Source: Eledone cirrhosa
Taxonomy: Eukaryota
NCBI GenBank assembly: GCA_964016885.1
Contig: OZ024741.1
Location: forward strand, 147,684,001 to 147,748,000
DNA: 64,000 bases
Direction: 5' to 3'
Shown: positions 2,661 to 45,768 of the stretch, one piece after another
Layout: each line of letters opens with the position of its first letter
Position numbering within the stretch: the stretch's first letter is position 1
Translations under genes and position numbers: made by a program
Notes under the pieces: generated by a model
Database searches by the model: none
Seen by the model: only the letters and a program-made list of their open reading frames with translations
Told to the model about the DNA's origin: nothing

Positions 2661-2698
2661 TTGAAAAGATGGCTTTTGCAGACCCATCGAAACCGGTC
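2661..2698 (+). ncRNA. Hammerhead ribozyme-like motif, U3-A8 core variant
   Basis: TTGAAAA-GATGG(cttttgcagac)CCATC-GAAA-CCGG-TC; palindromic stem III ACCGGT and a GUC triplet. Stem I is not convincing. A (TA)n tract starts at 2844. Confidence 0.55.
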
Positions 2699-3552
2699 AT
2701 TTTTTATACCCTTTATTATTTCCTTACCTTATAAAATTATGTTTTTTCACAAAAAAGTATCCTGTCTCTTATATATTCCATGTGCCATTACCAACCTCAA
2801 TTTTCTCTATAGCCTTCGTTTTGTGTAGAAAATTACACTTTTCATATATATATATATATATATATATATATATATATATATATATATATATATATATATA
2901 TATATATAAATATATATATATGTTTGTGTGTGTGGGTGTCTGTGGCCTATACACACTGGTTACAGACACACACACACATACATCCTGTCACAAGTTATAA
3001 GATACATATAACTTAATATTCAGTCACCAAATTCAAGCTAGATACAGTAATGCTGTATTCAATTCTTTGAAGTCACCAGTCATAATTTCATTCAACAACA
3101 CCACCAGCTCTCTCCCTCTCTCTCTCTCACAACCACTATCTGCGTTTGTATTCACATTTCAATTGTACCTTACTTTCAAAGAATTTTCCCATTATGCGCT
3201 GATTTGGTTATTTATAAGGGTACCCGAAAAAACCCTCGTATCTCGGGATCCCGTGGTCCGATTTACGCGAAACTTTTCACTGTATTATTCACAAGTATTT
3301 TCACAAAGAAAATATCAAATCATTTTTCACTAATAGCTATCCAATCACTCCACTTCAAAATTCTTTTTTCTATATCTCTATGGATGCTTGACTGTTTGTT
3401 CTGAAAGATTTTTCTGCTTAAAAAGTTGCAATGTTAATGAAAAGCTGGTTTTATTTACAAAAGTTTGAAAGAAATTATTCTTACTTGTCTTAGTTTTTCC
3501 TTTTCCTTTCATTTTCTGACGTCGGAATCAACATTTTCTCATATTTATGCTG

Positions 3553-6500
3553 TTACAGTTTGTTCAAAAGAATGCTTTTGATGACAACATTCTTAGTTGA
3601 CTGGGTATCCTTCAGAAACACTCTGATATTTTCTTTTCGTCTTCCGCGGCTAAGGGCTACATATAGTTGACCGTGTTGGAATACAGGTCGTTCCAGATAA
3701 ACCAAGACGTTTTCCATAGTTTGTCCTTGTGCTTTATGAATAGTCATAGCGAAGCACGATTGAACTGGGAATTCTTATTCTAGGTATCATAACGATTTCA
3801 TTTCTGAAAGGAGCAGTGTTGATTCTTGCTAGTATGAGATTGTCGTGCAGTTCTTCCACGATCATGCGCGTTCCATTACAAAGCCTTGGAGGATTCAAGT
3901 TTCTCATAAGAATTATTGGCGATCCTTTTTTCAATTCCAGGTTATGTGGTGGCAGTCCTGATAGTTGAACCGAATCAAGGAATTCAGTTGGGAAATGAGT
4001 GGCATTGGCACCATCACTCACAGAATTATAGAATCGGTACTCTTTTATGGTTCCAGGGAAGAGTCTGATACAGGTGGAATTGATTCTTCTCATCATTCCA
4101 TTGAGAGGTACTAAGATGCAATTGTTCGAAAACACTTCAGCTGGATTGTCGAATGAGGGGTAGATGAAATCAATTCATTCTTCCATAGTTGTTGCTTGGA
4201 GAACCATATCTTTTGGCAAAATAATTTCCTCATTTTCAGTTTTTTTTATCTTATCTTCTCCAATATCCAATAGGAACTGTGAATAGTCTCCTGCTCCCCC
4301 ACCCAATCGCATGTTTGTCTTCAACTGAAATTTTTTGAAGCTTCGCCATAAGTAGGATTTTTTAATGCAGGCGTTTTCCACGTCCGCTTCATTTCCCCTT
4401 TTCACTACCGGAAGAAGCTGACGGAAATCGCCACAGAAAATTATCAAAATTCCACCGAATGCCTCATTGTTGTCGCATATGTCACGCAGAGTGAGGTCAA
4501 CAGCTTCGAAGCTTTCCCTCCGAATCATAGGACACTCATCCCAAACAATCAGCCTTGTATGTTGGAAGAGGTTTGCCGTCTTTGAGTTTTTATCAATGTT
4601 GCACAGACCATTTTATTTCACTACTATCGGTATTTTGAACCTAGAATGCGCTGTTCTTCCACCAGGCATCAGTGTTGCGGCAATGCCAGATGACGCAACA
4701 ACAATAGCCACGTCACCGTTTCCCCTGACTTTTGAAAGAATTAAGTTAATCAGGAATGTCTTTCCTGTTCCACCTGGAGCGTCAATGAAAATCAATGCAG
4801 ATGTGTTCGTCTCTAAACTGTTACAAACGAAGTCGTACACGTGTTTTTGATCACTATTCAATAGAGGCTCTGTCTTTTCTACAAATCGTCGCTGCTCTTC
4901 TCTGGTGTATTGCAATTCATGCAATAACTCCAAATTGCCAATATCCTGATTAACAACAATATTATTTGGCCTTGGCAAGTTAAAGTCACTAAGACTTTTC
5001 CCCAGGTCGTTAAGTTTGTCTTCAAAATACAGAAGACATTGATCATAATGTCTCTCGCTAATCAAAAGGTTAGAGTTTCTGGTAGCCCTGTATTCTATTT
5101 GAAGGTAATCCTCAGACAGCGAATGCTTAAATCGAACCCATAAAGCACTGGAATTGTCAATTTCCGTATTTGTGAGGAGCACGATGAATAGATCTCTCAT
5201 GGCTTTGGGAAGCCTTGTTCGCTCAGCATCTTCCAGAGTCTGCTGCCAATGATCATCCGATTGAAGCAAACCTTTCTCTCTGCAGACGTCTTTGAATAAT
5301 GGCAGGAGTTCTCCATCACACATTTTCAAAGAGTTGAAGGATACTGGCCATTTGACGTGATGCAGAAGGAGTCTTAAATAATACAGGTCACCACTTCGCG
5401 GAGAAACAGTGTATACTCGTCCCAAAACGTTCGCCTCAAAAATCCCTGGATACTGCTCAACTGTTTCCCCCACCTTTCTCCTTTCCCATCTCTTATTACT
5501 CCAAGTGTAAAACTATGGGACATCGGCATAATACAATGTTTTGCATCGCAAAGATCCATGAACTCAGTCAGAGTCGTCTTAGCCATGTTATTGTTTACTT
5601 TAACAGCAGCATTGACCCAAAAGAAGATTTTATTTTCCTCAGGTAGATGAACTTGAAGGCGAACTACGGCCGGTTCTCTCTCATGAATTGGAAATCCAAG
5701 TACCAAGGCAACAGCTTCTGAAGGACCGATATATCTTCCTGTTAAATACTGTATTATCTCATCTTCCCTGTTCACTCCAAACATTCCCTGATCACTGCCC
5801 TTCATGGTATATTTGATAATGTATTTGATCGATTTCACGGAAGAGCACATCTCTACGTGTAGGTGGCAGTTGAACAGTTTTAATAGTTTCATATTGTAGG
5901 GAAGCACCCATTCCGAAGTTATATTTCGGCTTCCCCTTCCTTCTTGGTGCTCCTCAAATCCTCCCATTCCTGGAGACCGACTTCTGTACACAGTATAAGA
6001 GTCCTCTGCACACAATGTATATTCATTGAAAGGCTTAGGGTACCGCTTACTATACGTTCCATCTTTCCAACACAGCGAATTGTTAGAGCAATTCGGACCG
6101 TGGATCATGTGCTTCAGCACCAATTCATGACCCTCTGGATCTTTTTTTGGATCTGGTATTTCGGCTTGAACAAATTTATCATATTCCTGCGGTCTGGGCT
6201 TGGACGCTTCATTGAGCCATAGCAAACAGTGCACATGAGGAAGACCTGTCAGCACGTAAGCAATCCACTTGCCAAATAGGCCATCTACTCCAGTAAGATA
6301 CTTTCTTAACAGTTTCCGCCTCAGGTCAAATACTCTGACAATTAAATCTGGCCTGTCGTGTGGCTTCTGTTTCAGGAATAGGTTTTGCCGGATTTCAGGC
6401 CAGTTTGGATTGCATGTTATTGTGATGAAGAACGAAGGATTGCCGTACTTCTGTATGTACATCATGGCATCCTGGCATCGCTCCATCATATATCTCGGTC

Positions 6501-44919: not shown

Positions 44920-45293
44920 TACATACATACATACATACATACATACATACATACATACATACATACATACATACATACATACATACATACACACACAGGC
45001 CGGCGTTGGTGTTTGATGAGGTTGAGAACCTGGTCAGCTTTCAACCAGAGCTGTGGTATTTAATCTCCTTAGGTAATAAAATCTGGAGTCAAAATGTTCT
45101 CCTTACCAAAAAAAACAACATAAATCATGTCAACATCCTTGCACACTTAAATATAAATGCATGTATATATACACATGTATAAATGCATAGCTATATACAT
45201 AGGTAAATATATGTATGTATATATGTATGTATGTATGTAGATTTATATATATATATATATATATATATATATATATATATATATATATATATA

Positions 45294-45768
45294 TTTCGTT
45301 TCTGAATTTGTTTAGCAAGATTCTTTATCTGAAAACGTGTGTTGAAACCGATATTGTTATACTTTGGAAGGGTCATGTTGCCAATAAGAAACACACGCAC
45401 CAGTTGCTTTCACTTCAATTTATTATAATAAATTTATAAATTTCCGGTTGGTTGGTTGGTTCCACAACCAGATGGTTGTTTATATATTGTCAAAGTTCTT
45501 TCGTCACACATTCCTACGCCATCTTGTTTTTGAAACAAGATGGCGTAGGACAGAACAAAGGAGAGGCACAAAAAAACAAAGGAAAGAATCCCCAGTCACC
45601 GAAGAGGTCATAGAATGTGTGACGAAAGAACTTTGACAATATATAAACAACCATCTGGTTGTGAAACCAACCAACCAACCGGAAATTTATAAATTTATTA
45701 TAATAAATTGAAGTGAAATCAACTGGTGCGTGTGTTTCTTATTGGCAATATGACCCTCCCAAAGTATA
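45294..45768. repeat. Fold-back copy of the 11580-11889 Penelope 3' module between (TA)n tracts
   Basis: 45294-45529 is a minus-strand copy with an internal deletion; 45533-45768 is the plus copy. The hammerhead at 45594-45637 has CCGAAGA (U4C). Confidence 0.9.

Follow-up and report, generated by a model that had tools for sequence, protein, structure and literature searches.

Penelope-like elements that encode an endonuclease (EN+) are described as carrying a reverse transcriptase (RT) followed by a GIY-YIG endonuclease, tandem pseudo-long terminal repeats (pLTRs) with an initiator-like TCACT, an inverted copy next to the element, a tail confined to one end and a preference for (TA)n or AT-rich targets (PMC8557442; PMC3846280; PMC11167929). 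Their pLTRs hold minimal type I hammerhead ribozymes with a short palindromic stem III, a bulge after A9 and U3-A8 core variants, whose copies are mostly solitary and include opposite-strand pairs 100–700 bp apart (PMC4209133). Animal non-LTR retrozymes are tandem repeats that lack an open reading frame (ORF), with a single type I hammerhead in each unit, a low GC content and a circle predicted to fold strongly; the published case for their mobilization by Penelope draws on co-occurrence and on homology to pLTRs (PMC7229834; bioRxiv 10.64898/2026.07.22.740005). Here we analyze a 64,000-nt stretch of the Eledone cirrhosa genome (the window; assembly GCA_964016885.1, contig OZ024741.1, forward-strand positions 147,684,001–147,748,000), in which an original prediction made from sequence alone had placed twelve hammerhead or hammerhead-like cores of about eight unrelated families. 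Families are named after the window position of a core, and individual loci by L numbers.

The features listed above for the described elements recur here, and we read the modules, with a probability of about 0.85, as 5'-truncated ends, from the pLTR and 3' untranslated region (UTR), of autonomous GIY-YIG Penelope-like elements in eight families and as an ORF-less tandem retrozyme in the ninth (family 37082), likely produced by cutting of both (TA)n strands and priming of cDNA at two fixed RNA sites. Because this architecture is already published, we propose no new class. The modules are a real and statistically strong new instance of known Penelope biology, to which they add a density estimate, empty sites and a Penelope signature on a retrozyme. 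In contrast to published EN+ elements, tails here measure 35–145 nt instead of 30–40 bp, 3' UTRs extend over 1–2.3 kb with internal simple repeats, and nine families lie within 45 kb; unlike the hammerheads of PMC4209133, three families have cores outside the consensus.

Other copies link eight of the nine families to GIY-YIG Penelope ORFs, as the predicted connection between tails and ORFs had implied. Families 11640, 34115, 21041, 20175 and 2661 are located 3' of RT/GIY-YIG ORFs (window positions 1001..2843 align along 1843 nt with L215, a locus carrying an RT-thumb/GIY-YIG ORF), and direct pLTR pairs lie 3.1–4.1 kb apart for 21041, 20175, 34115 and 11640. At L212, the two pLTRs of a 21041 pair, 3.1 kb apart, stand on either side of a 782-aa open frame. 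A single ORF with an RT and then a C-terminal GIY-YIG endonuclease is present in L212–L217, L282 and L284; Pfam matched GIY-YIG in one of five Penelope proteins scanned, and a Penelope protein search returned 61 homologues, nearly all without a name. Long copies of 17021 (L266, L306) are preceded by Penelope coding sequence. Families 9268 and 19415 had at first appeared to be ORF-less, an impression overturned by ORFs in longer flanks. Copies of 9268, gathered by pattern search and as chance finds in other samples, are joined to a Penelope ORF in L282 (after a 1.4-kb UTR) and L369. Among eight long loci of 19415, three (L408, L409, L413) have a sense Penelope ORF or EN end upstream, three lack a Penelope match and two have an opposite-strand match only. 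The eight families are thus 5'-truncated ends of autonomous elements, and 37082 alone stands as a non-autonomous element. The families are also less unrelated than had been supposed: we count nine, of which 20175, 21041, 34115, 9268 and 19415 join ORFs matching one and the same Penelope protein. In some pLTRs (11534–11590; L032, L266), CCGGATGT, GCGCATGCGC and AAGATGGCG presumably resemble ETS, NRF1 and YY1 sites of TATA-less promoters.

A strict type I hammerhead descriptor found six matches in the window (8906-, 9268+, 18777+, 19415-, 36842- and 37082+), compared with 0.34 on average over 100 dinucleotide shuffles made block by block, and gained a seventh (11640+) when the known bulge after A9 was permitted. 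CUGANGA, GAAA, NUH, stems I and II and a palindromic stem III are all present at 9268, 18777, 11640, 19415 and 37082. Among the sites originally proposed, the prediction holds for those with the seven descriptor-passing motifs. The sites 28630, already proposed as decayed, and 45599 are decayed (10 nt of core are gone from the former, where a paralogous copy described below retains CTGATGA; the latter reads CCGAAGA), and 20175, 21041 and 34115 fall outside the core consensus and are not confirmed as hammerheads. At 20175 and 21041 CUGANGA is kept and the GAAA/NUH arrangement is missing (GAUU or GAAU, with no compatible NUH, among the copies listed); this motif is possibly a derived structured RNA. 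At 34115 a U3-A8 core has GAUA in place of GAAA and, in most copies, an extra U that bulges stem I; there are hints that this GAUA motif may be a real hammerhead variant. The U3-A8 core at 2661+ is complete with a stem I of 2 bp, and its relatives keep GAAA-CCGG while N7 varies. At 17014- and 17021+ a canonical core is divided over two damaged arms, and the descriptor missed family 17021 because stem II is just 2 bp. One further module, 21358(-), lay outside the original list. A cmscan of the window against Rfam, at E-values up to 5, gave 139 matches, none to hammerhead families.

Two side observations concern the atypical cores. L071, a relative of 34115 with 75 per cent identity, varies at N7 and has an A-U to G-C swap at the putative 10.1-11.1 pair. 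In 20175 and 21041, which are related young Penelope families, CUGANGA is accompanied by a downstream hairpin (UCGAAU...GCAGCGA) without a hammerhead second core, and a similar stretch terminates the Penelope arm of L414.

Window self-comparison recovered all seven of the predicted inverted duplications, and 20175 likewise holds a 51-nt inverted piece. The claim that the arms run into (TA)n is borne out for 16 of 18 arms checked, which reach a tract of at least five units 64–312 nt from the core; the exceptions are 17014-, which terminates in a short TA stretch, and 33586-, which continues into its ORF. The same association extends across the genome. In sixty 10-kb stretches at preset positions (600 kb of the 3.0-Gb assembly), we found 46 intact motifs spread over 32 loci and 22 blocks, where ten shuffles average 0.4. 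A (TA)6+ tract lies within 300 nt downstream of 39 of the 46 and upstream of 15, compared with 24 per cent of random positions, as the proposed targeting of (TA)n had led one to expect. An inverted copy lies within 1.5 kb upstream of 28/46 motifs versus 16/297 random 40-mers. These 46 motifs are not independent, because both arms of one fold-back are counted.

A block bootstrap estimates 2.3x10^5 intact motifs per genome (1.4–3.2x10^5), omitting families with very short stems. Exact genome matches number 10,868 for a 35-nt tail stretch of 11640, 10,391 for the 37082 core and 3,603 for the core of one 9268 subfamily, a scale in agreement with the bootstrap. We estimate the load at about 200,000 intact hammerhead motifs, which is unusually high: with methods that differ, 2,000–9,000 per genome are given in PMC4209133, and for the axolotl, with a genome of 28 Gb, retrozyme copies are put at up to 120,000. 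High density was rightly predicted, although at about one intact motif per 13 kb across the sample, below what the window alone indicates, and not one per 5 kb. The open literature, subscription journals aside, yielded no account of cephalopod hammerheads, for which supplements may hold counts; 30 recently active Penelope families are reported in Octopus vulgaris, and the words "hammerhead" and "ribozyme" are missing from the main text of that paper (PMC13282606). At L219–L278 we met at least eight more hammerhead families beyond the window's set, U3-A8 types among them.

Every family that was checked ends 3' at two fixed places, with the main arm stopping at one base and the inverted arm 35–145 nt short of it. 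In 11640 the main end is at +254/258 (30/30) and the inverted arm stops at +194 in 13 of 20 junction inversions; in 21041 the corresponding positions are +276/277 (25/25) and +170 (six inverted arms). Inverted arms of 34115 stop at +178-183 (six arms), the stop in 17021 is at +68/69 (16/18), and 19415 has one common stop site in 10 of 11. The position of the apex or junction differs among copies. Together with the ORF links and the (TA)n enrichment, this anatomy supports the Penelope origin, (TA)n targeting and inverted pLTRs of the original prediction.

Empty sites come from a paralogue of window positions 15003-36394, 95–97 per cent identical and about 47 kb downstream on the same contig. 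In place of window modules 20175 and 21041, it has a single uninterrupted (TA)41; 17129..18873 is missing, and a different fold-back occupies the tract that holds 18777 in the window. Several insertions into shared (TA)n tracts distinguish the two copies. As (TA)41 is empty in the paralogue, the tracts most likely predate the insertions, with deletion in the paralogue as the alternative.

Family 37082 consists of ORF-less tandem units of 465–520 nt (about 480) with internal (TA)n, a type I hammerhead per unit, 36 per cent GC and a circle predicted to be strongly folded (z -8.7). Unlike described animal non-LTR retrozymes, it combines this unit length and internal (TA)n with frequent head-to-head inversions and two fixed ends about 60 nt apart, and no pLTR homologue was found. 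We read 39 locus rows, excluding duplicate rows and window copies (two rows are one array). Arms occur on both strands in 25 rows, 18 of which have one arm at each fixed end, and 2–6 tandem cores occupy one arm in 15. Array start points are scattered in the unit, whereas arrays end at either of two constant positions bordered by (TA)n; the retrozyme bears the two-site "tail" signature of Penelope. Arrays cross the cleavage site, and the template was therefore likely multimeric or circular. At L414 a retrozyme trimer stands head-to-head with a Penelope arm that has its own (TA)n end, with short microhomology at the junction; L415 and L417 also adjoin Penelope coding sequence, less clearly. On this evidence, which is at the level of sequence, Penelope enzymes likely move this retrozyme in trans.

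The 5' ends bear on how short copies arise and on what the ribozyme does. We selected 30 copies of a 9268 subfamily by their core. Of these, 20 have a 5' end within -90..+83, and eight of the 20 ends cluster in 14 nt, an interval picked post hoc, at the initiator-like CACTATCC (P-value = 9e-5); the other ten ends lie further upstream or are mis-mapped. We presume CACTATCC to be an initiator from its likeness to the published pLTR initiator. In 17021, 15 of 30 5' ends lie at -21..+11 of the core, close to TCATTT. The Penelope transcript begins inside the pLTR (PMC2377424), and short copies would be expected if cDNA synthesis were primed close to the 5' end of the mRNA; many of those of 9268, and less clearly of 17021 and 19415, likely arose in this way, by run-off at the pLTR start. 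In 11640 one of about 50 arm ends is near the cleavage site, and this lack of a pile-up agrees with the uncleaved RNA reported as template for an anole Penelope (PMC11167929). For minimal Penelope hammerheads, the literature reports cleavage that is weak or dependent on protein (PMC4209133; PMC11167929).

These observations suggest a mechanism in which the Penelope protein would cut both (TA)n strands and prime cDNA from two fixed internal RNA sites, one cDNA per broken end, giving a head-to-head pair with a tail on one arm only and a variable join. The RNA template was likely uncleaved, and the hammerhead, located a short way upstream of the priming sites, would for that reason be copied with them. 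The retrozyme likely relies in trans on these enzymes, with multimeric or circular RNA as the template, and many short 9268 copies (17021 and 19415 less clearly) would result from priming near the mRNA 5' end with run-off at the transcription start in the pLTR. The two-end anatomy matches the two RT start sites, with extension on both strands, seen with the anole Penelope in vitro (PMC11167929). Several points weigh against this scheme. Arms of 17021 diverge by 9.1 per cent within a locus and 10.9 per cent between loci, a difference too small to separate one template from two. Mapping of 9268 5' ends is noisy, with four ends caught by reference inverted arms and five capped at -101, and a search for a start-site hotspot in 11640 found none that was strong (3 of about 50 arm ends near the putative start). 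The two-family junction of L414 is a single case, and as Penelope coding sequence makes up 1.3 per cent of the 600-kb sample, that adjacency may be due to chance. The retrozyme unit showed no detectable similarity to six Penelope references, and its partner is therefore not pinned to any of them.

Alternatively, fold-backs could arise by snap-back self-priming on a single template, as proposed for rotifer Penelopes, and retrozyme arrays could grow by DNA-level recombination. We consider this unlikely but the most serious competitor: apexes are palindromic, some 17021 copies have variants common to both arms, Arkhipova et al. interpret junction palindromes as self-priming, and Li et al. consider unequal crossover for array growth (bioRxiv 10.64898/2026.07.22.740005). 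Yet simple snap-back leaves the tail on one arm only and the L414 junction without explanation, and the retrozyme arrays, whose start points are scattered, all stop at one or other of two fixed sites with (TA)n beside them. A strong form of the original prediction would instead take the fold-backs for ORF-less hairpin elements, mobile as units, that supply self-cleaving and double-stranded RNA at high density. Of the 46 sampled motifs, 28 do lie within fold-backs, and stem II of the 9268 superfamily covaries (two-sided changes in 6/16 pairs among 17 motifs). In addition, 40 of 40 scored top matches of a 17021 query were hairpins of similar geometry, and we had taken 17021 for a fixed hairpin unit on this basis. 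That query held both arms, which biased the count; 18-19 of 30 tail-selected copies are fold-backs with differing apexes, and the fixed unit was dropped. Nor did we find the shared fixed apex and two equivalent ends of a unit resembling a miniature inverted-repeat transposable element, as apexes vary and ends are asymmetric. With ORF-bearing copies in 8/9 families and covariation expected via selection in active parents, the hairpin-unit claim is very improbable. Least probable of all, to the point of being hardly credible, is a merely passive association with (TA)n, in which tracts are abundant (5.2 per cent of the sample is (TA)6+) or have grown after insertion, and in which inversions are assembly artefacts of palindromic DNA; the enrichment is strand-specific, junctions are fixed, arms have diverged and the tracts are already there at empty sites.

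Returning to the Penelope-end interpretation, a more far-reaching combination is possible, and we advance it tentatively, as somewhat short of an even chance. It would combine the densest animal hammerhead load reported (one intact motif per 13 kb, or about 2x10^5 in all) with insertions that directly preserve the Penelope mechanism: a retrozyme of about 10^4 copies on which a Penelope RT dimer, able to join cDNAs of two RNAs head-to-head, primes at the two sites that set the tail, and many "solo pLTRs" that are run-off cDNAs of mRNA leaders ending at the transcription start. A retrozyme that itself carries the Penelope integration signature bears on which enzymes move animal retrozymes, and because very young open-frame Penelope families (21041) are found beside it, trans-mobilization is directly testable. 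An estimated total of at least 10^5 ribozyme motifs, over half of them in short inverted repeats, would form a large pool of possible editing and small-RNA substrates if transcribed. A search of sequencing runs listed no RNA run with the sequence; the contigs of one run, of uncertain kind, contained one highly repeated family.

Table 1. Hammerhead modules and associated Penelope and retrozyme pieces in the window.
Feature	Coordinates	Strand	Details
Family 2661 Penelope 3' end, 5'-truncated	1001..2843	+	Low-complexity long 3' UTR, U3-A8 variant at 2661, tail, (TA)n
Family 9268 fold-back	8817..9456	.	Core 8906- in the tail-less arm and 9268+ in the tailed arm, repeat resembling a short interspersed nuclear element (SINE) between (~9072-9260)
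Penelope GIY-YIG end and 3' UTR/pLTR	11026..11888	+	Hammerhead 11640, tail, then (TA)33
Family 17021 short fold-back	16895..17083	-	Apex at hammerhead stem I; minus arm tail ~65 nt
Family 9268 Penelope 1.75-kb 3' UTR end	17129..18873	+	Hammerhead 18777, tail-less end; 78-89% identity to L282 3' UTR
Family 19415 fold-back	19269..19519	-	Intact hammerhead 19415-
Family 20175 pLTR piece	20093..20333	+	51-nt inverted piece, CUGAUGA, second core non-canonical
Family 21041 fold-back, very young Penelope	20426..21206	.	CUGAAGA, second core non-canonical; minus arm tailed, plus arm tail-less
Hammerhead module 21358(-)	21251..21370	-	Resembles 9268 superfamily
Decayed family 19415 relative	28540..28750	+	10-nt core deletion
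Broken Penelope RT ORF and upstream pLTR, family 34115	31383..33603	-	
Inverted 5'-truncated copy of family 34115 3' UTR/pLTR	33604..34425	+	Atypical hammerhead-like motif 34115
Fold-back insertion of ORF-less tandem retrozyme	36396..37412	.	Cores 36842- and 37082+; each fixed end site is the terminus of one arm
Family 11640 fold-back	45294..45775	.	Minus arm tailed; plus arm tail-less, decayed core 45599

The window holds further mobile elements. Between (TA)n tracts at 19608-19883 lies another fold-back insertion, which is missing from the paralogue; it contains a palindrome of 78 nt without mismatch and gave no hammerhead match. Positions 28836-30019 are taken up by a further Penelope piece like 11640, which comprises the RT end and GIY-YIG and has a short tail arm in inverted orientation. 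On the minus strand, 3734-7665 is a broken Helitron with a Helitron_like_N domain and neighbouring helicase-like frames. An open 1150-aa endonuclease-RT frame of a long interspersed nuclear element (47202-50654, +), which we take to be L1/Tx1-like, is followed on the opposite strand by a 515-aa frame with an ORF1-like look (51041-52588, -). Finally, a SINE-like repeat some 150 nt long is abundant (37795-38330, 9124-9260, 14436-14560 and 57458-57687), arranged in tandem and, at 57466-57678, as a head-to-head pair.

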